Assembly: GCF_030684315.1 (NCBI RefSeq) | Contig: NC_081372.1 | Span: forward strand, 55,805,070-55,869,069 | Origin: Stegostoma tigrinum | Lineage: Eukaryota | Length of the DNA stretch: 64,000 nt | Direction of reading: 5' to 3' | In this document: one piece after another, positions 4,789 through 63,319 of the stretch | How positions within the stretch are numbered: position 1 is the stretch's first letter | Layout of the letters: every line of letters starts with the position of its first letter | Translations under genes and position numbers: made by a program | Notes under the pieces: generated by a model | Seen by the model: the letters and a program-made list of their open reading frames with translations, nothing else | The model's database searches: none | Told to the model about the DNA's origin: nothing

Positions 4789-5183
4789 TTCAGAAATAAT
4801 GGGAACTGCAGCTGCTGGAGAATCCAAGATAGAGCGTAGAGCTGGATGAACACAGCAGGCCAAGCAACCCATTTCCTTCCTACTAACCTCATCCCGCCCC
4901 CTTGACCTGTCCGTCCTCCCTGGACTGACATATCCCCTCCCTACCTCTCCACGTACACTCACCTCTACTGGCTCCATACCCGCCTCTTTGACCTGTCTGA
5001 CTCCTCTCCACCTATCTTCTCTTCTATCCATCTTCTATCCGCCTCCCCCTCTCTCCCTGTTTATTTCAGAACCCTCTCACCCTGCCCCATTTCTGACAAA
5101 GGGTCTAGGCCCGAAGCATCAGCTTCTATGCTCCTAAGATGCTGCTTGGCCTGCTATGTTCATCCAGCTCCACATTTTGTATC
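4789..5183. mobile_element. Penelope-like element family 1, inverted-end (palindromic) insertion with 12-bp TSD
   Basis: A minus-oriented end (about 4792-4866) is joined to a plus-oriented pLTR (about 4868-5183). TGAGAAAATACA flanks it at 4777-4788 and 5184-5195. Degenerate hammerhead at about 5093-5120. Confidence 0.85.
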
Positions 5184-9500: not shown

Positions 9501-10627
9501 TAACCTTTAATTACAGTTCTGTGCTGCATGAAATTTAATCATAATATTTTCTGGCACTAGTAAAACACCAGTCTCTGCCACTGAGAACAATACTGTTGTA
9601 TTATTGGTCTCCCATTCAGATTCAATTGATATTCAATACTTCCTCCTTCAGTGTAATTCTATACTGCCTGCCTGTTAGATGGAGTATTTCCCAGTAGGCA
9701 TGGAAGGGAATCATACAGATCATTTGCACCCTGCAGACATTCACCACGAGATGACTCTTAGTCAGTCTGCACTCAAGGATACAGCACAGAATCAAGCTTA
9801 ATTAATCATGCCAATACTTATACTACACTCAAGACTCCATCCATTTTTCACTTCAATTGACTATCACAACCGACTGTTCCCTTATCCCTCAAATGCTGGT
9901 CTTGCTTCTCCTTAAATACATGTGCATTATTAGCTTCAACCATTCCCTCCAGCACTGAATTTCACATTTTTTTAACCATTTCATGAGTACATTCTTCTAA
10001 ACTTCTTACTGTATTTCTTAATGGCTATATTGCGCTGAGGGTCCCTAATTATGCTCTTTGCAACAACAGGAAGTTGCAATCATTATTACAACCTTACATC
10101 AAATTTTAAAAGGTATCCTATTAGGTCATCCCTCATTCTGCTTTCAGAGCAAAAGGCACAAGCATTAGCCATTTTTTCTGATCTGTATATCACATTTTAA
10201 GTCTTTCTTCAACCTCTCAATGCTTTATCTTTTCGGTAATATTCAAACCAAAACTGCAGTATTCTCAAGTGTGGTTTAACCAAGGTTCACTACTTCCCTT
10301 TGCAATTCCTGTAGAATTAAACACAAGCTTTCAGTCTGCTGTTAAGAGCTGTACGGATCTGTGACATAATTATAGTAATCCATGTATCTGTAATTTGCAG
10401 TCCCTTTTGTTCCTCCACCCTACCTAGTCTCGCACGTTCCAAGTAATAAGTGACTTCTCTATTCTACCAACCAAAATAGACTGCCTCACATTCATCTAAG
10501 CTGAATTTCATTAGCCAATTATTAACGAACTGTCATGATATATGTTCTCCCAAAATTCTTGCAATCCTCACTACTGACAATTACTGAACCTCCTAAACCC
10601 CTTCCTACCTATCTGGTAGCCATGACG

Positions 10628-11305
10628 TGGAGGTACCAGTGTTGGGCTGGGGTGAACAAGGTCAGAAATCACACAAGAGATAATAGGAACTGCAGATGCT
10701 GGAGAATCCGAGATAACAAGGTGTAGAGCTGGCTGGACACAGCAGGCCAAGCAGCATCTTAGGAGCACTAAAGCTGACATTTCGGGCCTAGTCCCTTCAT
10801 CAGAAAATAAAATCTGTAAACATGCCTTGTTCAGATACATCATCTAGTAAATACACCATATTTCTTTTGTTCTGGTTTTGGTCAATATCTGCCTCTGGGT
10901 GGGAGGAGGGATTTGTGTTGAAGTTTGACATTGTAATGCCTCATTTTAATGCTGTGAGCAAACAAAAGAATTGCATTGCTATTGTAGTCACGCTTGGTGA
11001 ATTTATAATTCGAAATATGTATATGAAGTATTTCAAGACCTATTTATTCCTCTCCTGATGTATCATTAAGAGAATTAAAACAACAGTTCCGATTGAGCGG
11101 TCTCATAATTTTTGGCATTCTGAAGACGATTGGCTGAAGACGATTTTTCTGATGAAGGATCTAGGCCCGAAACATCAGCTTTCCTGTTCCTAAGATGCTG
11201 CTTGGCCTGCTGTGTTCATCCAGGTCTAATCCTTGTTATCTCAGGTTATAGTCCAACAGGTTTATTTGAAATCACAAGCTTTTGGGATGCTGCCTCTCTA
11301 TGAGG
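10628..11305. mobile_element. Nested structure: a PLE family 2 end interrupted by an inverted pair of PLE family 1 ends enclosing a captured 325-bp segment
   Basis: Family-2 halves at 10628-10676 and about 11242-11305; family-1 ends at about 10677-10807 (-) and 11144-11243 (+); insert at 10813-11136. Confidence 0.8.
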
Positions 11306-12551
11306 CACAATTAGTCAGTTTACGAAGAGAGGCTTTAAAATTGTCCCATGAGAGGACAGCTTCAGTAAATGTTAAACAGGTTCACAACTTCTAATTAACA
11401 GCACCAGTCTAAAAGAACATTAGCTTCACTGCAGAACAACATTACTCTACTCAAAAGACTGACTAAAAGGTTAGACACGCCAAACATGCATTACCCTGAA
11501 CCACCCTCACTGATCAATTTAAAACTCAATTATCTGCAGTACTGTGACAGGATAAAGGCTAAACTAAGAATCATTCTTTTTTTACAATGTGAATGAAACT
11601 ATGCCACAAATATAAACATCATGTGTGACTGGCAGAACACACTGCAGTCGGATACCTATTATACAAATAAAACAGAAAACAGTACCGGTATGTTGGGTGT
11701 CCAAAAATGATGCTTGCTTGACTAGTGAACATTCTAGAGGTTATGCTGAACATATTATCTGGTAAACATGCTAAGCTTGTAGAATGCAGTGATGCAGCAA
11801 GGGAATGGGAATGCCTGGTTTGCTGTCCAGAGTTGAAGGGGGCACAAATGCACCAAATGGCTTCCTCAAGTGCTGTAGTAATTCTGACTGACTAAGCTAC
11901 CAAGGTGATCATTAGAAGCATGGTTTACAGTCTAACTCTTCCAATTCAAATTCAAAAAAGTTTATTGACTGTACAGCCAAAATGTCACAAAAGGAGACAG
12001 CATGAAGCAAAACAAAGCCAAAAAGTTATTGTGGGCAACTTTTACTTTAGACTTTCCCAATCCCAATCAGTTTATTCCTCTCAAAAATCGAGTTATCATT
12101 ATTTTGCATTCTCCATTTTTGGCAACACACAAACCAGCAAAGTGCCTTCCCCCATATCTCTATCTTATGGCATGGACAACTTGTTCAATAAGCAAATCTA
12201 AAAACAGCACAGATTTTAGCCCTCATTTACCTTGCCCAGCCGATCGTCTTCAGAATGCCGAAAATCATGAGACACTCAATCAGAACTATTGTTTCAATTT
12301 TCTTAAATGACACATCAGGAAAGGAATAAATAGGTTTTGATATTCATATACATGTTTCGAATTATAAATTCACCGAGCATGGCTACAATAGCAATGAAAT
12401 TCTTCTGCTGGCTCACAACAATAAAATGAGGCATTACAATGTCAAACTTCAACACTGATCCCTCCCCCACCCAGAGGCAGATACTGACCAAAACCAAAAG
12501 AAATCCAGTGTATTTACGCAAAGATGTAACTGAACAAGGCATGTTTACAGA
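10813..12551. repeat. Long inverted repeat, arms 10813-11136 and 12237-12551, spacer ~1.1 kb
   Basis: Manual alignment is colinear over ~320 bp at roughly 85% identity. ORFs 10822..11058(+) and 12315..12641(-) are near-identical translations. Confidence 0.93.
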
Positions 12552-13069
12552 AAAAGGCAGCATATGCTTCATCTGGAACAGTCTTCTGTAAAGGTGTATC
12601 TGGCAGCACTGCCTGAAGGCACAACTTTCGTAATATCGCAAAAGAATATAGTTCTGGAATGTGCGCTGTTGCCAGGGTATAAGGTGAGTCAGTCAGTTAC
12701 CCCAAGGACCAATGGGTACCTGCAGACTCAAAGGCTCCTATTCATGAAATGGGGTAAAAAAAACAAACCAGAAAGCCCATGGGTTGGGGCTAGTGCACAA
12801 AATGATTTGTCACGGGGATGGGGGCTGCCAGTGGTGTTTCGTCCAAGCAGTCTTCTCAGGACACCTTTGCGAATTGAGAACTGAGTTTCAATTTTAACAC
12901 ATGATACAAGAGGAAGGGTAGGTAGGAGGGAAAGGAACTGTCAGGCAAGAGTGTGACAAAATGAAGATACACCCACCTAACAAGCAATTAGCCAGTTTCT
13001 AGATCAATTCTAAATCACTTGTACTTTTCTTTCAAATATTGCCAAATTCTCCCTGCTTAGCAAAACAAC

Positions 13070-17330: not shown

Positions 17331-17794
17331 TAACCATTTCAATGATTCTGTTCACTGTCTCAACTACCAAATCTTGCCAATAAACCCAAGATATACACAG
17401 AGCAGCAATTATCTGTTCAACCAATCCACCCTGTTTGTTCAGCTTCTATATTTAGCTTTTTAAAAATATCATGATGGCTCTTCCTCATTTGTTTTAGGGG
17501 AACTGTCTATGATGTTCCAGTGTAACAGATTTTCTAACCGTGATTAATTCTACCTTGTGTATGTCATGAGATTGCAGGATTGTATAGTTACGAACTTGTA
17601 CTCATTAATCAACTCTAGTGTACCTAGCCAAAGCAGATATGGGCAAAGTTGAATTTGTGCGTGTTTATGGGCAACATTTGCTCATCTGTAATTGCCCAGA
17701 AGGCATTTAAAGAGTCAACCGTATTGCTGTTTTTCTGGATGCAGGGCAGACCAAGTAAGGACTGATTTTCATCCCTAAGTGACAGTTGGTCTTT

Positions 17795-18087
17795 AGATTA
17801 GATTAAATTCGATTCCCTACAGTGTGGAAACAGGCCCTTCGCCCCAGCAAGTCCACACCGCCCCTTGGAGCATCCCACCCAGACCCATTCCCTATAACCC
17901 ACATGCCCCTAAACACTTCGGGCAATTTAGCATGGCCAATCCACCTCGCCTGCACATCTTTGGACTGTGGGAGGAAACCGGAGGAAACCTACGCAGGCAC
18001 GGGGAGAATGCGCAAACTCCACAGAGAGTTACCCGAGGCTGGAATCGAACCTGGGTCCCTGGCGCTGTGCGGCTGCAATGCTAACCA
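17795..18087 (-). mobile_element. HE1-type V-SINE inserted into an older SINE (remnants at about 17660-17790 and 18095-18200)
   Basis: Reverse complement has A box tggttagca, B box ggttcgattcc, the V-domain ggtttcctcccacagtccaaagatgtgcagg and a CR1-derived tail. Confidence 0.9.
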
Positions 18088-18834
18088 TACAACGGTGGTT
18101 ATATGGTTGCCATTAGGTTAGCTTTTAAACCAGATTTTAAATTGAATTCAAATTTCACCAGTCACGGTAGCATGAATCTGCAATATCACACTGCCACCAC
18201 CTCAAATAATGGAAAACCACAATAAGATCTCACACTGCCAATTTTAGTTTCTTGTTTTAAAAATCTTTCAGGATCAACACATGACAGTTGGGTACTTAAA
18301 TAAAACATTGAAAAATTACTAATGTACTTTGGGGGCTGAACTTCACTTTTAGCTTTGAATTTTATTATAAAATGGCCAAGTTTGCGCTGTTTGATCAAAA
18401 AAGTGCACTCGCCTTTCCTAAACTACTTTTGGTAGAAAAAGCAGTAGCCTTTCTTATATCAAACAGATTAGTGTGGTTATATTGCAATGGGAAGAAAGGG
18501 AAAAGCATATGTGTACTTTTGACTGTAATTAAAATTATGAAAAGGCTGATTTGAAAAGGTAACTGCTCATGTCATGTATATGTAGTAACAACCAATAAAA
18601 TTGGACATAATAATCAATGATTAATAAACTTGAGAAGTCATCTTGGTCTGCATGCATGGATCTTTCTGCATGTTTTTCAAAATAAATCTTTTACAGCATA
18701 AACATAAATAAGTTTATGCCAAAAAACATGTTAATATTATTAGGGAATAGCTAGTGATTTAAACAGTCTACCTAGGAATTTACATGTCTTACTATTAAAC
18801 ACTAAGAATTTGAAGCAGAATTATCCAAGATATT

Positions 18835-19190: not shown

Positions 19191-19904
19191 TAAATTAAAT
19201 ATGTTAACGTTAATATTCCAGATATGTGCTACCATGGCTGAAGGTGAAATTTGAATACAATTTAAAATAAAATCTGGATTAAAAGCTAACCTAATAGCAA
19301 CCATGCAACCAATGTTGTAAAGACAAACTAGTTCATTAATACCATTCAGGAAAGAAAATGTCTTTATTTGGTCTGAAGACTCCAGAAAAACAGAAAACAT
19401 TTACGAAATATATGTTCCACCCAACATTTCATATTTGCTCATTAGATTAAATGTATTAAAAAGCCCAATTCAAAATTAAGGTTTGAGAATGCTGAAATCT
19501 TTAGTATAATTAGAAGCGGAAAAGAACAGCTTTGAAATATTGTATTCCATAATTTGTGTTCACTTCATTTTCTAATTGAGTGGATTATAGGAATGGTCAG
19601 GATGAAAAATATGAAGCAGTATGAATCTTGGCCCAAACATACTTACATGAAGCACAAACCCAGATTCAAAGGATTCGGAATTCTGCACTGTTCCACAGAC
19701 GAGCAAACCCAAGATGTGATAACCACATGTGTAAACAATTGTTTCAACAAAAGCTAGAACAAACCTGGAATACCAATGTGTATTTACAAGCCATAAGTCT
19801 CACACATACTGGCGTCATGTCCTATTTCACAAGTGAAACGTGACCGATTGAATTTTCTCTTTGATAGAGCAGTCTACTGACTAGAATTAAACCTGAACAC
19901 AGAC

Positions 19905-23009: not shown

Positions 23010-25080
23010 CGGGCAGCATGGGGATTCTGCAATTCGGGATACAGACAGCGTCCTTTGTAAACAGAACTGAAAGTCCCGCACAGTAAGTTGCCTGCATTGT
23101 GCCATGGTAATGGACATCTTGATCTAGCTTAACAGGATGCTGAAGTGGAAAGGAGAGGATCCACTTGTCATGGACAATATACAGGCGAGAGGTTCTGCTA
23201 GCGGAATATCAGAAATTAGGAACAAAATTGAAGAGCTTGGCTTCCAGGGTTATAACCTCTGGATCATTATCCAAACCGGGTGCAAACTAGCATAGAAGTA
23301 AGAAAATTGGAAATAAATGCATGGTCAAAACAGTAGTGTGGGAAAGAATGTTTCTATCTCACGGTGCTTGGCATCAGTATTGGAACAGGTAGGAACCTGA
23401 ACTGACTTGGGATGAATGATCTCATGGAAAGGCTAAATAAGGCGATCACGGGGTTCAGTTTGTAAATGGGAGGTGGCAGGGGGGGTGGGGGGGGAGGGGG
23501 AGTCAATATAGTTTCTAAATCAATTGACAGGACTGAGAATGGGAACACTCCGAGGAGCATCTTGAGTAAACTGAAAAAGACAGTAAGAGTAAACAGGAGA
23601 ATAAAACATTAGTACTGAGGCTCAGGTTACAGAGTATGGTCTAAATAAAAGTTTAAATTCGAATGCAGAGAGTGTAAAGATCGAATTAAATGAGTTGAAG
23701 GCACAAATTCAAATTGAGATTGATTATAGTATGAGACACAGCTGCATGATGGTCATTTGGGAATTAAATACACCAAACTGCAAGACTTACAGGACAGACA
23801 AGGAAAATGGCAGGAGGTGGAGTGGAATTAATCTTATTTACTAATTTGAAATGATTTTACTTCAATAGGAGGGAGGATCAAATTACGATAAAGTATTCAG
23901 TGGAGTACAAATGGCTGGAAGTGAGGAACAGCAAAGAATCTAAAACTGTAATAACATTCTGTATAAACTCCAAGTACAGCTCTGAAGAGCTAGATTGTAT
24001 AAATGTAGAAATTAGACAAGTGTGTAGCAAAGCCTGAGTAATATTTTAATGTTAACAAAGATTGGGAGAGGCAGACAAACACATCGGAAATGTAATGAAT
24101 TTCTGGAATGTGCCCAGGGTAGTTTCCGACAGCAACGTGCCCTGGGTGCAACAAGGTGGACAAACAAACAAACTATATTGAATTTAATAATGAGTAATGA
24201 GCCAGATTTAATTAATAATCTGATTGTGTGCAAACACTTATGCAAAGTGAAAATCATGACTCGAAATGCAGGCAAATGGGACTAGTTTAGATTGGGAAAC
24301 CTGTTCAGCATGGACAGGTAGGACCGAAGAGCTTGTTTCCATTCCGTGACTCTAGGTAGGGTCAACTTTAACGAGATGACACAGGCTGTCCACGTTAAAC
24401 TGGGAAAACCTGCTTATGGGCAAAACAACTGAAGAACGGTGGAGGATATTCAAAGAAACATCTAACAATACAAAACCAGTTTATACTCGTGGGAAAAGCT
24501 GCACTTTATGTAAGAAATAGCCATGCATAACTAAAAAGAGATAAGGGACAGAATAAAACTAAAAGGAAGGGCTTACAAAAATGCTAAAAAAAAGCATAGA
24601 TCTGCTGAACGGGAAAGATATAAAGACCAGCGAAGGGCCACAAAGCAGACTTATAAAAGCTTCTGAAAGAGAGATCACAAAAAAACACTTACTGGGGACA
24701 TCAAAATCAATACAAAGAAATTTAACAGTTGCGTAAAAGAAAGCGGATCTGTAAGGAACAACACTGGCCTACTAAAGACTGAAACTGGGGATTTCGTCAA
24801 TGCCTGAGGGGAAATGGCAGACATGTCCAATGACTACTTTACCTCATTATTTACACTACAAGAGGAGGATAGCTTGACAGAGGTTCAAAGGAAATTAATA
24901 GTTTTATTCAGTCCCTGTTCCATGAAAATAAGTAAAACGTAAAGAAATTAATGGAATTAAAGACTAGCGAATTCCCATGGATCTGATCATTTCCATCCAA
25001 GGCTGTTAAAAGGTAGTAGGTAAGCACACTGCAGATACCCTAACTATAATATTTCAGAGTTCCCTACATACAGGAGTCAT

Positions 25081-25930
25081 CTGAGATAACAAAGTGTGGA
25101 GCTGGATGAACACAGCAGGCCAAAGAGCATCAGAGGAGCACAAAAGCTGACGTTTCGGGCCTCGACCCGTCATCAGAAAAGGGGGATGGGGAGAGGGCTC
25201 TGAAATAAATAGGGAAAGAGGGGGAGGCAGACCCCGAAGATGGATAGAGAAGATAGGTGGAGAGGGAGTATAGATGGGGAGTTATGGGAGGGGGTAGGTC
25301 AGTCCAGGCAGGAAGGTCAGTCAAGGGGGATGAAGTTAGTAGGCAGGAAATGGAGGTGCGGCTTGAGGTGGGAGGAGGGGATAGGTGAGAGGAAGAACAG
25401 GTTAGGGAGGCGGGGATGAGCTGGGCTAGTTTTGTGTTGCTGTGGGGGGGAGAGAAGAGATTTTGAAGCTTGTGAAATCCACATTGATACCATTGGGCTG
25501 CAGGGTTCCCAAGCGGAATATGTGTTGCTGTTCCTGCAACCTTCAGGTGGCATCGTCATGGCATTGCAGGGGGCCCAGGATGGACATGTTGTCTAAGGAA
25601 TGGGAGGGGGAGTTGAAATCGTTCACAACTGGAAGGTGCAGTTGCTTATTGCAAACCGATGTTCTGCGAAGCTGTCCCCCAATGTAGAGAGAGCCACAAC
25701 AGCTGCAGTATATCACAATGGCAGATGTGCAGATGAACATCTGCTTGAGGTGGAAAGTCATCTTGGGGCCTGGGATGGGCGTGAAGGAGGTGGTGTGGGG
25801 GCAAATGTAGCACTTCCTGCGGTTGCAGAGGAAAGTGCTGGGTGTGGTGGGGTTGAAGGGGAGTGTGGAGCGGACAAGTGAGTCGCAGAGAGAGTGGTCT
25901 CTCTGGAAGACAGACAAGGGTGGGGATGGA
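25081..25930 (-). mobile_element. 5'-truncated Penelope-like retroelement (Neptune-like) with GIY-YIG endonuclease relic, pLTR and hammerhead motif
   Basis: ORF 25543..25917 has the Cys linker CNRRKCYICPH, then F.CTS..VIYC..CGSLYIG (GIY-YIG). Another frame gives QEQQHIFRLGTLQPNGINVDF. Confidence 0.9.
25149..25176 (-). ncRNA. Minimal type I hammerhead ribozyme motif (PLE-associated)
   Basis: CUGAUGA-C-GGGU(CGAG)GCCC-GAAA-CGUC: intact core boxes, 4-bp stem II, palindromic ACGU stem III and a GUC cleavage triplet. Stem I is weak. Confidence 0.7.
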
Positions 25931-27219
25931 AAAATCTCTGGATAGCAAAACTGAACATCTCACTCTGCATTTTAAAATGGGCAAAAAAAGAGGAAAAGCA
26001 AGGAATTTCAGACTAGTTACCATCTCTTCTGATGTGGAAATTGTTGGAGCCAAAAAAAGGACAGTTACTGAACACCTTAAACATTTACAATGAATCATAA
26101 AGACCAGCATGGATTCATGACAGGTATGTCATGCCTGGACAAACCTCAATGAATTTTAAGAACTGAATAAACTAACATTTGGGAATGTCTATGGATATTG
26201 CTTATATGGACTTTCAGAAGATATTTGATTAAGTCCCACATTAGAGACTTACATCAGAATGAAGACCACAGAATTGAGGGAAAATTACTGATGCTGTTGA
26301 GAAATTGGTTGAGTGGTAACCAGAAAGTAGGGCTAATGAGTAGGTAATCAAGTTGGCACAATGTGACCAGTTGGGTCTGTGCTAGCTCTCAACTGTTCAC
26401 GTTAATAAATAACCAAATCATTAATAAATAATGATTTGGTTAATGGCATAGATAGCAAGATATCCAAATCTGATGACACAAAGTTAGGCAGCATTCTTTG
26501 ACATTGCAGATCATAGCATTAATTTACAAAGCAATACTGGCTGACTAAACAAATGGGGGAAAACTGCTGCAGGAAGAGTTCAATGTAAGCAAGTGGGAGG
26601 TTACCTATTTTGGACTTAAAAAGGATGGATCATGGTGATTTCTAGATGGGATGAAGTTAAATACAGCGGAGGTCCGAAGAAATTTGGGGTTCAGTTCCAT
26701 AGACATTAAAATATCACAAAGGAGGTGCAGAAAATAAATCAAGAAAGCTAATGGAATGCCGACCTTTCCATATAGAAGGCTTCAGTACAAGGATGCAGAA
26801 AATATATTGCAGTTATATAAAGTCTTGGTTGAATACCACTTGGAGTACTGTGAGCAGACCCAGGCACAGTACTCAGGCAAGATATATTGGCCTTGGAGGG
26901 AGTACAATGTACATTTACAAGAAAATCAATCAAGTCCAAGTATCAAAGTTATGAGAAGATATTATACAAATTAGAGATAATCTTCTAAATTCTAAAGAAA
27001 ACTAAGGGGTAATCTGATAGAAGCCTTCAAGATATATTGGATACTGGATCAGTCGTTAATTTTATATCTGAGATAATGTCTTTGCTCTACAAAGAAAACT
27101 AAGGGATATGGGCCAAAGCCAAGTATATGGAGTTAAGTTGTAGATTAGTTATGATCTCACTGAATAGTAGAAAAGGCTGGAGGGGCTGAATGGCCTACTC
27201 CTGTTTCTGTATTTCAACA

Positions 27220-43676: not shown

Positions 43677-43895
43677 GAAGTTGTAGGAACTGCCGATGCT
43701 GCAGAATCTGAGATAACAAGGTGTAGAGCTGGATGAACACAGCAGGCCAAACAGCATCAGAGGCGCAGGAAGGCTGACGTTTCTGGCCCAGACGCTTCTT
43801 CAGAAAATTGGAAAAGGCAGCTATAGGCCTCAAACATCAGCCTTCATGCTCCACTTGGCCTGCTGTGCTCATCCAGCTCCACACCTTGTTATCTG
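43677..43895. mobile_element. Penelope-like element family 1, inverted-end insertion with 13-bp TSD
   Basis: Minus-oriented end with extension (43677-43807) and plus-oriented end (about 43823-43894). AAGAGATATTTGA flanks it at 43664-43676 and 43896-43908. Confidence 0.88.
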
Positions 43896-48971: not shown

Positions 48972-49091
48972 CGGTGTAAATTCGAAGTTTTTCTGATTCG
49001 CTAAGTTTAGAATGTACTCCAATCGAAACTGATTCTCTGGATTGGCTAATGGGACTGGTGGTACAAGCGTATTCATTGCACCCACTATGGT
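48972..49091 (-). CDS. GNAS: GNAS coding exon equivalent to mammalian exon 5 ([40 protein letters not shown])
   Basis: Acceptor ttttattatag|ACC, donor CCG|gtaagt, 120 nt, phase 0/0. Matches the Gs-alpha helical domain. Confidence 0.97.
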
Positions 49092-49880
49092 CTATAATAA
49101 AATTAAGAACAATCATTCAGGGTCAATCGTTTAGATCACTGTCCCCTTCTCCAACCCCCAACCCATCTGGTTTACTCATTGGCCATCACATTCTAATCAA
49201 TTTCTAGCCTCCACGATGCTGTTTATTATTCAAGAAATGATATAAGGCAATTTTGCACTAGCACAGTCAGCAGGCTATTCAACAACAGAAGTCACAATAA
49301 AGAGTCTGGGTTGATCCTGTTTGTGTTGATCACATTTTTCAACAGGGATAGGGATCACAAGCAGGAGAGCAATTTATGGCTCCCACAAATATCCGGATTC
49401 CTTAGGTCAGGGACATACCAATCTCTACCAACTCAAACCAATATTAGCTTACACTGATGATAAAACCTGGGACATGCCAGAGATCAGTTCTAAGAGTAAC
49501 TGACTCAATTCTATAGCATGAGCTCCAAAGATTGTGAAACAGAGCACAATATCAACTTCAATGATGTGACTGATGCAAGGGTCACAAAATTTACAATTCT
49601 TGCTCTGCAACCTAATATTCAATCACTCAAGTTAGCTAAGCTACAATAAATATTACTGACAGAAGCAGAGGAGGCAGAATGTGAGTGACTCAAACCACTT
49701 CTTATTTGATCAGTTGTAATAGTGGAAACCACTACATCATGATGGGTTTTATCTATTCTGATAGATATGTACATCAAGTCTGAAGTCAGAACTATTAAAA
49801 ACAATCAACCAGAATAATACTTTATTAGTAACAGTTGTACATACATAAGCAAGCTAGGTAAAGACAAAAGAAGGGCTTAC

Positions 49881-49935
49881 CTCTATAGCTTCTTTAATAT
49901 TATTTTTAATATCTTGAATTTTCCGTTTTTTCTCA
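49881..49935 (-). CDS. GNAS: GNAS coding exon equivalent to mammalian exon 4 (D-EKKRKIQDIKNNIKEAIE)
   Basis: Acceptor cttctcttcaacag|T, donor GAG|gtaagc, 55 nt. Phase is compatible with exon 2 (GA+T = Asp). Confidence 0.97.
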
Positions 49936-50081
49936 CTGTTGAAGAGAAGTATTGAATTATTCTTTTAAAATATTCACATATTACAGTAGCAGTTACAATT
50001 GGCAGCTCAAAGGTTTTACCCTTTCATAAATATAGTTCTGTCTTTTTGCAATTTTTTTTCTGATTAAGGGCAAAGTACACA

Positions 50082-50397
50082 GGTAGCACAGTGGCTCAAT
50101 GGTTAGCACCGCTACCACTGTGCCAGGAACCCAGATTCAATTCCAGTTTCAGGTGACTGTGTGGAGTTTACACATTCTTCCAGTATCAGTGGGGTTTCAT
50201 CGAGGTGCTGCAGTTTCTTCCCACAGTCCAAAGATGTGCACGTAAGGTGGAATGGCCATGCTAAATTATCCATACAACCAGATACTTGTAGGCTAGGTGG
50301 CTTTGCCATAGGAAATGCAGGATTACAGGGATAGAATGCTCTGGGTAATATGGACTCGACAGGCCGAATGGCCTGCTTCCACACAGTAGTGATTCTA
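50082..50397 (+). mobile_element. HE1-type V-SINE in GNAS intron 2
   Basis: gtagcacagtggctcaatggttagcac head, V-domain cccacagtccaaagatgtgca, CR1 tail ggccgaatggcctgcttccacac. Confidence 0.88.
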
Positions 50398-51469
50398 TCA
50401 ACACGAACAGTCAATTTCCTAACCTCCAGAAAGAGGGGCAAGAGTTTACACTTCACATCTATACTAAAGTTGCACTACAGTTCCAGAGTTGGAAGTCTCA
50501 CATTACTTCACAGTAACAAAAGAGTACTGTCAGCCACTGGTTGAACTGCGTAAAGCGTTATCCTAATGTGGTCTCCAATTTAATTTAATTAAATACCAAG
50601 GGAATCTATGCTGTATAAACACCTAAAATTGAACTACTGGGAATATCATAACATGCACATAACTCTCTCCTGAGCATAAAGTTCAAATTCTAGCTAGACA
50701 ACTACTAATCTGAGACCAATAGTTACAGTCTAAATACAGAATTTAAAATAAAACCATAAGTTACAGATGAAAGCACATTTCTCACTGGTTAACCTGTTTG
50801 CTTTAGCAGAAAATGTTACTTTGTTAATCCCCTTGTCATGTTTCATTACAGAATCCCAGACTTCCAAAGGATTCCCACTTGGTGTTGACCAGCCAAAATA
50901 AAGCACAGATTTTTTCAATGGCGTGATTTCTATTAACAAACCAAAAGTGAGCAAAATTTTAAAAAGTATGATAACAGCAACTAAATTGTAATATGCCAAT
51001 CTGCAGGACAAACAGTTGAACAAAATTAGTGCAAACCTTCAAACTAAACAATCTGTATTTAAATAGCATCTTTAATGCACTAACATCCCAAGCTAAATCA
51101 TGAAGTGTTACAAAGCAAAACTTAAACACCAAATAAGGAGTAACCTGCACAGACAAAGAATTGCTTGGCCAAAGAGATGGTCATTAAGAAATAAAGCTTG
51201 TACATTGAAATCTACTTCAAACTTGAAAATCTCAGAAGGAAACAAGAAATTTTGCATAAATGTTGGACATTTGAAAGCCGACTGCATTGACCACTGAAAT
51301 TTCCAAATGTGATCCAGTTGATTATTAGAGAAGCCAGGGCCACAGTATCCACCAAGCCTTCAACTTTGAATGCATTTAAAATAGCAAACAAATATTTTCA
51401 GTAAATGTAACTCAAATGCAAATATAACATTTCATAAAATGCACACACATGAAACTATGCTATTCGGTA

Positions 51470-51762
51470 TGGGGAAGCGATAGCCTTGTGGGTTCAAATC
51501 CTGCCACACTCCCCACCCCGTGGGTGGAATTTGAATTCATTAATAAGATTTGGATTTAAAGAGTCCAATGATAGACCATGAAAAACTCATCAGCTGCACT
51601 GATGTCCTTTCAGGAAAGAAACTGCAATCCTTACGTGATCTGGCCTGGAGATGTGTCTGCAGACACACAGATGTGTTTGATTCTTAACCAGCCTCCGGGC
51701 AAATAGAAATGGGCAATAAATACTGCCTAGCCGGCAACCCTCATCCCATGAATGAATAAAAA
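51470..51762 (+). mobile_element. tRNA-derived SINE (Meta/MESC-like core) in GNAS intron 2
   Basis: B box gggttcaaatcc, core gatgtcctttcaggaaagaaactgcaatccttac..g.tctggcct, tail gggcaataaat.ctgcctagcc...cccatgaatgaataaaaaa. Confidence 0.78.
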
Positions 51763-52170
51763 ATCCAATTAATAGTGAGCATTTGACTGAAAAAAAACTT
51801 GCGCAAATTAACTGTTTCCAATGTGAGTTATGAGAAATGAATTCAAAACTGTCAACTGTATTCAAGCTGTTGCTATATAAAAAGGTAAGCTTAAAAGTAG
51901 AACAGATTATCACAATTTACAAAAATAGGCGTGCAAAATATTGATATGTTTATGTCTAAAATTAGTGTGTTTAAATTTGTTGTAACACAGGCAGCCATAT
52001 TGGAGAAAAAGGGGGCCATGGCAGGAGGCGGACTGCAAGCAGGGAAACCAAAACCAGCTGAAAAATGAAAAGAAACACAATAAGGCAAACCCAGCTCAGC
52101 CACATCGATAATGAAATAAGGAAACTGCTCTGGCTTCACAGGAAACCTTAAAAACAATATCGACACTTAC

Positions 52171-52243
52171 TCGGCATGAAATCCATTGACGTGTAAAATT
52201 CGCATCTGCTTGACGATAGTGCTTTTACCGGATTCACCAGCTC
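52171..52243 (-). CDS. GNAS: GNAS coding exon 2 (P-loop GAGESGKS; ...[16 protein letters not shown])
   Basis: Acceptor attacag|GA, donor GA|gtaagt, 73 nt, in frame with exon 1. Encodes the G1 box GAGESGKST. Confidence 0.98.
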
Positions 52244-53290
52244 CTGTAATAACGAAATGCGATTTTGAATAAAATAATTCTCAACTCAAAAGCACAATTT
52301 TCTCATGTTTAGACCCACAGTAAAAGGTTTGGGTTCTTTCATTCTCCAAAAGTCTCAAAACACAATGAATTTTTAAAAAACATTTCACTCAATTTATCCA
52401 CTTTCTCGGCGTTTCTTACACAAGATTAGCTTCTTACTACAGGGTCCTCTCCCTTTTTCCTTCAAAAATAACTTCACGACCCACCTATCACTTGAGCAGC
52501 AGTTAATCAAATCTGGTATTCCCCTTCCCTCCCCTACAGTTTACACCATTTTAAATAATTAAAACAGCCTTCAAAAATACACAATATCAACAAGCCTAAC
52601 ATTTCTAACCTCTCAGAGCAACTAAGTGTGTATTATCTGACTTGGACCCATTTGTAAATTAAAACCCATTTCCAGCAACAAGCGGCCTCCATGTTTATAC
52701 AGTTAGCAACAGGCCCTTCCACCTCCTCAAACCCTCCATTCAAAAAAGCAACACATCTCAAAAACAAATAACGCGACAAATTACTGCTTTAGAAAAGAAA
52801 CATCCAGAATTTGAAGGACCCACACGGGCAATAACAAAAAAAATTCCTTCCAACGACAACAGCAAGCCTCCATGTTGTATTATTTTTATATACACATACA
52901 CAGACGCTAAAGCCCAGGAACCTGCAACGTTTATTTTTAAAAAAATCCCCACCTTCACAGGTCTTTCTCTACTCGAGCTGTTTAATTTAAAGATTGGCTT
53001 TATTGTTAAAAAGGAAGCGGAGATTGTGGTTGGGTTGGGGGGGCGTTATAAATACAAATCTCCAAGAAATAAATCATTTAATTTACACCCACATCAGGCC
53101 CTCGTCTCCCCCAGCTCAGAAGCCATTTCCCCATCGTGGCCTGTCAGTGCTGCGGCTTCGAGATGGTTCTGCAGCCGGCTACCGGCTCAGTACTTTTACC
53201 CCGCCTTGAGTGAAGTAGGGGGTGAAGTTATCGGTTTCTTTCCTCCCCAATCCCCCGGGGGGAGAGTCCCTAACGCCTACTCCCTGGAGA

Positions 53291-53999
<709 letters not shown>

Positions 54000-61690: not shown

Positions 61691-62208
61691 GCTCCAAGCT
61701 ACTTCAGGCTGACTGAAAAGCTGGAATCCGAAGAATGAAATGGGATAGGAATGGCAGTTACAACCGTCCCACTCCTGACAGATGCCTTGTAGAAGACACA
61801 GGCATTAATGGTCAGTTGAGTAATATGCTACAGCGTTCTCTTCTGCACTCTGGTGCTGGACTCTACCATTATTGTGAATAGGGATGTTCATGTAGATCTC
61901 TCCTCAGTTTAATTGCCACTACTACCATTTGCAGCTGAAGAAAATTCAGAGTTTTGACCTGGTCTGTTGGTTTGTGCCAGACAAAATGTTCACCAGTTTG
62001 GCACTTCCTTTTTTTGGTGTGCCTGTTCCCACTCCTGGTATTTTCCTGCATACCTCATTGAACCAAGGGTGATCCTCTGGCTTGATGGTAGTGATGAGAC
62101 AAGGATTGTAATGATAAATTTAGGATCAAGACAGACAGATTTTGGGTAAAGGTAAAGCTGCCATGGTCCAAGAGGACCACAAGAGCTGCTCTGTAATCAT
62201 GGAGAGAC

Positions 62209-62524
62209 GATGTGGAGGTGCCAGCGTTGGACTGGTTGAACAAGGTCAAAAGTTATGTGACACCAGGCAGGGATTTTAAAGAAATTCTGGGATTTGCATT
62301 TTAATCAATCAAACCATACATCTCCTATCTAACTGATTGATTAAAGATTTAACATGAGCGAATCAGCCAGCCATTTCAGGCTTATTTAATACATTTGCAA
62401 TGGCTGGATGATCTTTTACTAATAAATTCTGCGTCTTGATGCCTGTGCACATGATAAAGGAGCAATGCTCTAAAAGCTAGTGTTTTCATAAACCTGTTGG
62501 ACTATAACCTGGTGTCATGTGATT
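62209..62524. mobile_element. PLE family 2 inverted-end insertion with degenerate hammerhead
   Basis: gatgtggaggtgccagcgttggactgg...gacaccagg (-) joined to ...atgataaaggagcaatgctctaaaagctag...cctgttggactataacctggtgtc (+). Possible TSD ggagaga. Confidence 0.65.
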
Positions 62525-63319
62525 AGGGAGAGATAGTTGGTGCTGAGTTCAATAGAGGGTTACTGCACCTCAAGTAAGCCAAGTTGAGAAAGTGGAACCT
62601 ACATGGTTATTTTAGGTGGTACGGGAATTGAATCCACACGATTGGTGTTCCACTGCATTACAAACCAGCTGCGCAGCCGACTGAGTTTGAGACTATCGCA
62701 TGTTGCAGAATACAGTTCTGCTGATGACCCATAGCACCTCATGAATGCCCAGTTTTGAACAGCTATTAGCAGTTGTGAATCTGTGCTGTTTAGTCTGCTG
62801 GTGGAACATGTCCTCAAGACAAGACCACTCCGGTAGGTTGAAGACAATCAGGTCAAGACATTTGTTCCTTTTGTTGGTTCTGTCACGATTTGCTGCAGGC
62901 TCTATCTGGCAGCAGTATTCTTCAGGACCTGAGGACAGTATGAGGACAGTCAGTAATTAGCTGGATGTTTCCTTGCCAGCCAGATGTTGTGATGTGTCAC
63001 TCAGTCCGGAGTCACTGTTGAGGACTCAGAGCCACTCTTGTCAGTACACCACTATACTGCTATCTCTGGTATATCTGTCCTGCCCATGGAACATACCCAG
63101 GAATAGTGGAGGTGTCAGTGTCAGTTGAAAGGTACGATTCGGTGAGTACATTGAACTGTCATCATTTGCTTTCGACTAGTCAGAGTTTCAGTTCTCCTAC
63201 TTGGTATTAAGATTTTGCCGCGTTGTTTGGGCTGAGTCAGATATGTTGTGTCCCATTTCTAAGTTAATGCTAGATCAGTTTTATTATTATGTTTTTGTGC
63301 AGTGGTCTGATAGAACCTC

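Follow-up and report, generated by a model that had tools for sequence, protein, structure and literature searches.

Two opposed ends of a Penelope-like element (PLE) in Stegostoma tigrinum enclose an inverted copy of host DNA whose donor lies 1.1 kb away. The reading we favor, at about even chances, is that one PLE insertion occurred at a processed double-strand break and was closed by a locally templated DNA patch. The window, by which we mean the whole stretch of 64,000 nucleotides that was analyzed (contig NC_081372.1, positions 55,805,070 to 55,869,069), has a base composition of 39.5% G+C and contains 0 N.

Opposed PLE ends enclose an inverted copy of nearby DNA

The cassette is 567 bp long and consists of a tail, a left arm (-), a 5-nt spacer, the inverted copy, a short restart and a right arm (+). 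Its parts, its target, the donor and the host exons are as follows:

10624 to 10676 (-): target, left half of an older "family 2" repeat end (37 of 44 columns against 62209-62251; score 51)
10677 to 10709 (-): 33-nt PLE tail (extension), on the left arm only, recognized by its sharing among copies
10710 to 10807 (-): left PLE pLTR arm with a decayed minimal-hammerhead core starting at 10803, defined by BLAST, alignment and pattern
10808 to 10812 (no strand): 5-nt A-rich spacer between the left arm and the captured copy
10813 to 11136 (-): captured inverted copy of 12237-12551, 324 bp (282 of 325 columns), running against the strand skew of the intron
11134 to 11144 (-): 11-nt restart, in which donor 12243-12253 is copied once more; it is linked to the long copy by an overlap of 3 nt
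11145 to 11242 (+): right PLE pLTR arm without a tail, with a decayed hammerhead core from 11149; its last 1-3 bases are common to the target
11243 to 11305 (-): right half of the older family 2 repeat end (38 of 42 columns against 62472-62511; score 61)
12237 to 12551 (+): donor, intronic DNA, with flanks free of PLE sequence and no surrounding duplication
48972 to 53789 (-): four G-protein alpha exons with canonical AG/GT borders (Pfam G-alpha E 1.5e-8 for one exon)

The two arms, 10710-10807 (-) and 11145-11242 (+), are identical at 86 of 98 positions, and folding indicates that they could form a stem of about 100 bp. A first-pass annotation had placed PLE ends at 10677-10807 (-) and 11144-11243 (+) and had described inverted termini of about 100 bp enclosing host cargo. 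Both descriptions stand, with 98-nt arms around a local copy and the 33-nt tail on the left one. A search for direct and inverted repeats located the restart at the right inner junction, where 11134-11144 repeats 11120-11130. At the left inner junction we looked for a template for the spacer 10808-10812, and for complementarity between it and the donor end, and found neither. The cassette itself contains no open reading frame.

The patch and its donor

Self-BLAST of the window aligned 10813-11136 with 12551-12237 at 86.5% identity over 325 columns (E 2e-104). A global alignment of copy and donor is colinear, with 282 matches, 32 substitutions (22 of them transitions) and 11 gap columns, and the similarity comes to a sharp stop at both arms. 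The local score of the pair is 428, compared to at most 33 among 200 Markov-shuffled queries. These results bear out the initial description of the 324 bp as a colinear reverse-complement of 12237-12551 at about 85% identity. That description had also failed to recognize the segment as any other repeat; indeed, sensitive BLAST (word size 7) returned no third copy of donor or patch in the 64-kb window. Whereas the repeat families of the window recur at up to 9 other places, the donor recurs at none beyond the patch.

The donor lies 1.1 kb from the cassette in inverted orientation. We found no duplication above 5 nt around 12237-12551 and no repeat-like ends, and its flanks (11900-12236 and 12552-12900) contain no PLE matches. 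Because no PLE lies beside the donor, 3' or 5' transduction, or read-through from a source element, is ruled out. We also rejected a coding or TE-protein origin, on Pfam and protein comparisons that are weak negatives: four open frames that overlap or adjoin the donor gave no Pfam match below E 0.04, and for one of these frames none of 27 candidates among longer proteins reached E<=1. The region 10500-13000, which takes in cassette and donor, yielded 5 chance-level matches at E<=10 in Rfam, likewise a weak negative.

Strand composition favors 12237-12551 as the native copy and the patch as its derivative. On the top strand, the A-T skew is +0.19 in the donor and -0.13 in the copy, against an intron mean of +0.08 (155 tiles). 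Two of the 155 tiles, in a tiling that includes the copy itself, have a skew as low as the copy. Scored in-sample under five Markov models, with the tiles part of the training, 0-4 of 148 tiles reach a value as low as that of the copy. The lack of a surrounding duplication and of flanking PLE sequence also argues that the donor is native and was not carried in by read-through. The local donor that had been proposed at first pass thus gains support from the skew. CpG sites have decayed on both sides (3 in the copy, 2 in the donor), so neither sequence looks constrained and both are probably neutral. Separately, a 9-nt inverted match between 11287-11295 and 12555-12563 could halt synthesis at the donor end; it is 1 of 28 inverted pairs in 2.2 kb, and we give it no weight.

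The four G-protein alpha exons lie at about 53652-53789, 52171-52243, 49881-49935 and 48972-49091 on the minus strand, in a gene that we take to be GNAS (G-alpha-s). A G+C-rich island at 53-55 kb coincides with the 5' part of the gene. Because motif scans of 1-48971 revealed no convincing later G-alpha exon, the cassette probably lies in one long intron, with the later exons beyond the window, and the intron after the fourth exon seen measures at least 49 kb. The G-alpha transcript has the sequence of the bottom strand and passes 12551-12237 ahead of 11243, which places the donor 1.0-1.3 kb before the insertion site. With the gene on the minus strand and the donor upstream, the orientation fits either of the templates suggested at the outset, chromosomal DNA or nascent intron RNA.

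The arms match a family identified as a PLE

Four other insertions in the window were used for comparison:

4789 to 5183 (no strand): sister inverted-end insertion with element sequence inside and a 12-bp target-site duplication; control
25079 to 25940 (-): long copy of the arm family, truncated at its 5' end, whose decayed coding sequence for RT thumb and GIY-YIG is 70-73% identical to two shark proteins
43677 to 43895 (no strand): sister inverted-end insertion with a 16-nt spacer and a 13-bp target-site duplication; control
62208 to 62526 (no strand): family 2 inverted-end insertion with a 7-bp target-site duplication, which gives the uninterrupted target sequence

The long copy at 25079-25940 runs from the same end as the arms into decayed coding sequence, and through it the arm family is identified, on sequence grounds, as an EN+ PLE (RT with C-terminal GIY-YIG). 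The protein relatives found for the family come from whale shark and zebra shark only. One shark protein, P0001, has Pfam matches to GIY-YIG at E 8.6e-5, above the cut-off, and to RVT_1 at E 9.3e-5, below the cut-off; the other, P0002, has a GIY-YIG match only, below the Pfam cut-off. For the decayed frame at 25079-25940, Pfam gave no GIY-YIG, an Atlas look-up was empty, and so was a PDB search of P0002. The same copy has no tail or clear duplication (best 5 nt) and, by eye, apparently lies inside a decayed LINE.

The 33-nt tail is found on the left arms at 4789, 10677 and 43677 and on copies at 1 and 22480, and it is absent from right arms. A one-sided tail of 30-40 nt is among the features described for PLEs (PMC3846280, PMC8557442, PMC11167929).

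Both ends had also been annotated as carrying a hammerhead. What remains of this is a decayed core pattern, CTGANGA..GAAA, in each arm (10803 (-) and 11149 (+)). The pattern is unspecific, however, occurring at 14 places in the window, most of them outside the arm family. Rfam gave no match of any kind in the window at gathering score and no hammerhead at E<=10 in 10500-13000, and the minimum-energy folds of the arms contain no three-way junction. The palindrome that permits dimer cleavage in minimal hammerheads (PMC4209133), ACGT, is intact in the copy at 25176 and altered in both cassette arms. As a separate observation, three of the eight resolvable inner arm ends (10807, 11145 and 43807) end in one and the same T-run, which adjoins the hammerhead core on its 5' side. 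This shared stop lies upstream of the expected cleavage site and perhaps reflects a defined RNA 5' end.

A single insertion with loss of target bases

The two flanks of the cassette are consecutive halves of one older family 2 end, as seen by comparison with the two arms of the sister 62208-62526. They score 51 and 61, compared to a maximum of 23 at 1636 control positions. Because the whole cassette splits this older repeat end, the 567 bp went in as a unit, and the empty site rebuilt from the sister repeat substantiates the single insertion that the first-pass annotation had postulated. The sister has 3-4 bases between the two halves that are absent at the cassette; the target lost 3-4 bp and shows no target-site duplication above 4 nt. 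In contrast, all three of the other inverted-end insertions have an exact target-site duplication (12, 13 and 7 bp). The patch-bearing insertion is therefore the sole duplication-less one among four, and the chance of the missing duplication and the patch falling together is 1 in 4.

The apparent ages of patch and arms agree, with wide intervals that fit "same event" and "soon after" alike. Copy and donor differ at 32 of 314 positions (K2P 0.111, 0.074-0.153) and the arms at 12 of 98 (K2P 0.134, 0.064-0.224), and the two divergences are indistinguishable by Fisher's test (p=0.58). Each arm has 6 differences in 94-95 positions from the sister majority.

The target was another inverted-end family, which the cassette entered about 10 nt short of its end; going by this single case, PLEs may favor pLTR-like targets. 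The anole PLE protein is described as cutting in its own pLTR (PMC11167929).

Other inverted-end insertions and local pairs in the window

The sisters at 4789-5183 and 43677-43895 share the layout of the cassette, as had been noted, with only PLE sequence between the ends of the former and 16 nt between those of the latter. The interior of 4789-5183 matches the long copy at 25079 in 237 of 323 columns. For the 16-nt spacer at 43808 there is no template nearer than 13 kb in the window; by eye, spacer bases 43813-43823 share 10 nt with 12553-12562, just past the donor end and 31 kb off, which we take as chance. Within the family 2 insertion, 187 bp (62269-62455) have no local source or other copy in the window. 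This segment holds a 51-nt imperfect inverted repeat (62362-62412) and is presumably the family 2 element's own sequence. Judging from its layout, family 2 is presumably itself a PLE. One of the four inverted-end insertions in the window carries a patch. In all four the tailed arm is on the left, which is the sense of the host transcript and has a chance of 1 in 8.

A scan of 179 tiles of the window for local copies revealed no second clear case. Seven tiles had a strong match within 3 kb; four of these represent the present finding, one is a multi-copy repeat, and two belong to the pair 18088-18186/19213-19319. We considered this pair as a fold-back at a SINE junction and dropped the idea because an old repeat carries on to the left of the SINE, where the sequence scores 33-40 in four of five comparisons (shuffle maximum 28); the pair is best taken as two copies of that repeat. 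Their mutual score is 111, compared to 37-48 to three other copies. Taken at full length, 17700-18186 and 19213-19400 are opposed old repeats 1 kb apart and 80% alike, the left one split by the SINE at 17811-18087, and it is possible that they represent an older local inverted duplication.

Proposed mechanism and alternatives

Two opposed arms imply two cDNAs, one per break end. The first-pass annotation had the polymerase switching template from PLE to local sequence and back; this would leave both PLE pieces in one orientation, which does not fit the opposed arms. In the mechanism that we favor, priming would have started on break ends that were blunt or had been trimmed, whereas the cut at the sisters would have been staggered. 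The PLE RT would then have primed one short cDNA per broken end, by analogy with the anole PLE in vitro, and both cDNAs would have ended in the T-run that adjoins the hammerhead core on its 5' side. The right-hand cDNA end (bottom strand) may next have folded back about 1 kb on its own strand, a direction that we infer. There it would have copied 11 nt and then, after slipping back with an overlap of 3 nt, 315 nt. Finally, a homology-independent join would have linked the patch strand to the left cDNA end, and gap filling would have followed. The patch may have been made by the PLE RT or by an end-joining polymerase of the host, and synthesis could alternatively have been primed across the break from the left arm.

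Because the new strand read from the right arm has the top-strand sequence of the donor, its template would have been the bottom strand, which means either the same DNA strand folded back, with more than 1.3 kb of resection, or the nascent RNA of the gene. Within the single-event view, we place about two thirds of the weight on DNA and one third on nascent intron RNA, making DNA the more likely template. Since duplication or loss is fixed before priming, the missing target bases suggest a processed break and tilt the balance to DNA. Sequence matches at the junctions were spotted only in hindsight and carry little weight. On the restart side, the donor start shares 6 nt with the cDNA end (P about 0.07), a match that shrinks to 3 nt when the search range is narrowed. 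At the donor end, 7 nt match (P 0.01-0.025), but in a polarity unsuited to priming or annealing. The fold-back mechanism also has points against it: it requires more than 1.3 kb of resection, whereas L1 fold-backs measure 52-220 bp and adjoin the target, and it rests on a single case in a 64-kb window. The product looks like a dead insertion in an intron that is decaying neutrally, and not like a cassette able to move. The window contains no second copy of it and nothing pointing to mobility.

A single event might also have used RNA throughout, with the PLE RT jumping from the 5' end of its own RNA to nascent G-alpha pre-mRNA, copying 315 nt and jumping to the 3' end of the other cDNA. We regard this as a tentative possibility. 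The gene is on the minus strand and its donor segment is transcribed 1.0-1.3 kb before the site, such that a tethered transcript would hold the donor; additionally, the right-arm strand is the exact complement of the G-alpha RNA, the left join lacks homology as end-to-end template jumps do, and one such L1 event has been reported (PMC10191854). However, strand and side would match by chance in 1 of 4 cases, and DNA fold-back predicts the same match. The absence of a target-site duplication suggests instead that a DNA break was processed, and the available sections of PMC11167929 do not report template jumping by the PLE RT. Broader still, and doubtful in our judgment, is the proposal that the PLE RT routinely connects its opposed cDNAs through a jump to the still unspliced nascent transcript of whichever gene the element enters. 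The resemblance of both donor ends to the cDNA end, and the three of eight resolvable arm ends that stop at the same T-run, would fit an RNA with a defined 5' end and a subsequent jump.

Lost target bases also bear on a two-step history, which would leave the missing duplication unexplained. Here an ordinary inverted-end PLE insertion, a near-perfect palindrome, would later have broken at its center, and host repair would have left a templated patch, with the PLE merely a fragile site. The arms can pair into a stem of about 100 bp, the sister at 43677 is a short-spacer form, and the clock intervals leave room for delay. We nevertheless consider this history unlikely, given that the two arms are preserved up to one shared base, at which the left arm at 43807 has its inner end as well, and that copy-donor divergence is not below arm-arm divergence beyond noise. 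It is quite improbable that the 315 bp represent a repeat, dispersed or of low copy number, or came in a ready-made PLE-framed cassette from elsewhere, and lie close to their counterpart by chance. The window has no third copy while other repeat families reach 9 places, there is no Pfam, Rfam or protein match (weak negatives), the donor has neither a duplication nor repeat-like ends, and the similarity ends exactly at the arms; on the other side, the search was confined to 64 kb, and the close pair 18088-18186/19213-19319 proved to be an old repeat. The reverse direction, with the cassette loop as source and 12237-12551 as the later copy, is hardly credible. Although the copied stretch is the whole loop between the arms, strand skew favors 12237-12551 as native, the 11-nt restart is present in the cassette only, and the origin of the loop would be left unexplained.

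Comparison with known systems

Pack-type TIR elements and MITEs also have inverted ends of about 100 bp around host cargo. The cassette differs from them in that its ends are retroelement cDNAs, it lacks a duplication, and it is present as a single copy in the window.

Among PLEs, opposed pLTRs with a one-sided tail of 30-40 nt are the typical layout (PMC3846280, PMC8557442), opposed minimal hammerheads lie 100-700 bp apart in Schistosoma (PMC4209133), and copies without a target-site duplication have also been reported (PMC3846280). According to PMC11167929, the protein of the anole PLE cleaves both strands and elongates both, beginning at two sites whose positions set the tail; two such sites fit the tailed and tail-less arms of the cassette. 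Inverted-pLTR PLEs of the Pen2a_Av type resemble the cassette in their opposed pLTRs and one-sided tail. In the available sections of those reports their interior is element sequence or its content is not analyzed, whereas the cassette contains host DNA and has no duplication. In Adineta vaga, host DNA does lie between pLTRs (an NRPS gene, Pen1 spacers and other captures; PMC3846280). These captures include a gene that has introns and for which an empty allele exists, as well as "a few other cases" that are non-coding, and no nearby donor is named in the available sections of that paper (PMC3846280). Both the NRPS type and the cassette consist of non-element sequence framed by pLTRs, in one insertion with an empty site. 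However, the NRPS gene has two direct pLTRs plus one inverted and an 8-bp duplication, whereas the cassette has two opposed ends and no duplication. Its donor, moreover, lies 1.1 kb away and inverted with no PLE beside it.

Closer parallels to the copying step come from other retrotransposons. L1 fold-back duplications of 52-220 bp beside the target are described in three plus one events, at 0.3% and 0.1% (PMC10191854). The same report also includes one co-insertion of local pre-mRNA made near the site, and templated genomic inserts and inverted duplications at target sites have been described as well (PMC11702581). Like the cassette, L1 fold-backs have local sequence copied inverted into a retrotransposon junction; unlike it, they belong to another class and come with a duplication and poly-A, while the cassette has 324 bp from 1.1 kb away between two cDNAs. 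The cassette is compatible with a pre-mRNA co-insertion of this kind, its donor being upstream in what is probably the same transcription unit and its copy antisense. In R2 (PRINT), the cDNA 3' end snaps back and primes on the cDNA or on nearby target DNA before joining (PMC11371274). The cassette shares an inverted local copy at a cDNA 3' end with R2 snap-back, although R2 (PRINT) is an engineered system in human cells with a site-specific target and one cDNA. Overall, the cassette works like a snap-back or locally templated junction with PLE ends; it is not a transduction, an Adineta direct-repeat type or a MITE. In the main text of open-access papers, we came across no case in which inverted PLE ends enclose sequence from a local donor. 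The available sections of PMC13174262, PMC9977147 and bioRxiv 10.64898/2026.07.22.740005 contain nothing on local donors between PLE ends.

Significance

The new feature for PLEs is a nearby, identifiable donor between inverted ends; the parts are ordinary and the combination unusual. Host capture between pLTRs (Adineta) and local inverted or pre-mRNA co-insertions (L1, R2) were already known. According to PMC11167929, the late steps of PLE insertion, second-strand synthesis and end joining, still await validation, and PMC3846280 leaves open where host DNA between pLTRs comes from. The cassette serves as a fossil intermediate of these late steps, in which donor, direction, age and empty site are all readable. 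By extrapolation, four inverted-end insertions per 64 kb correspond to probably thousands in the genome. Therefore, the side and strand of donors relative to transcription can be counted, and DNA fold-back can be separated from RNA capture. If the PLE RT did routinely jump onto nascent RNA, the inverted pLTR pairs of shark genomes would amount to a large-scale record of local pre-mRNA capture, and such jumps would explain intron-containing host sequence between PLE ends. A genome-wide count in sharks could help to show how PLEs finish their insertion and whether nascent RNA is copied.
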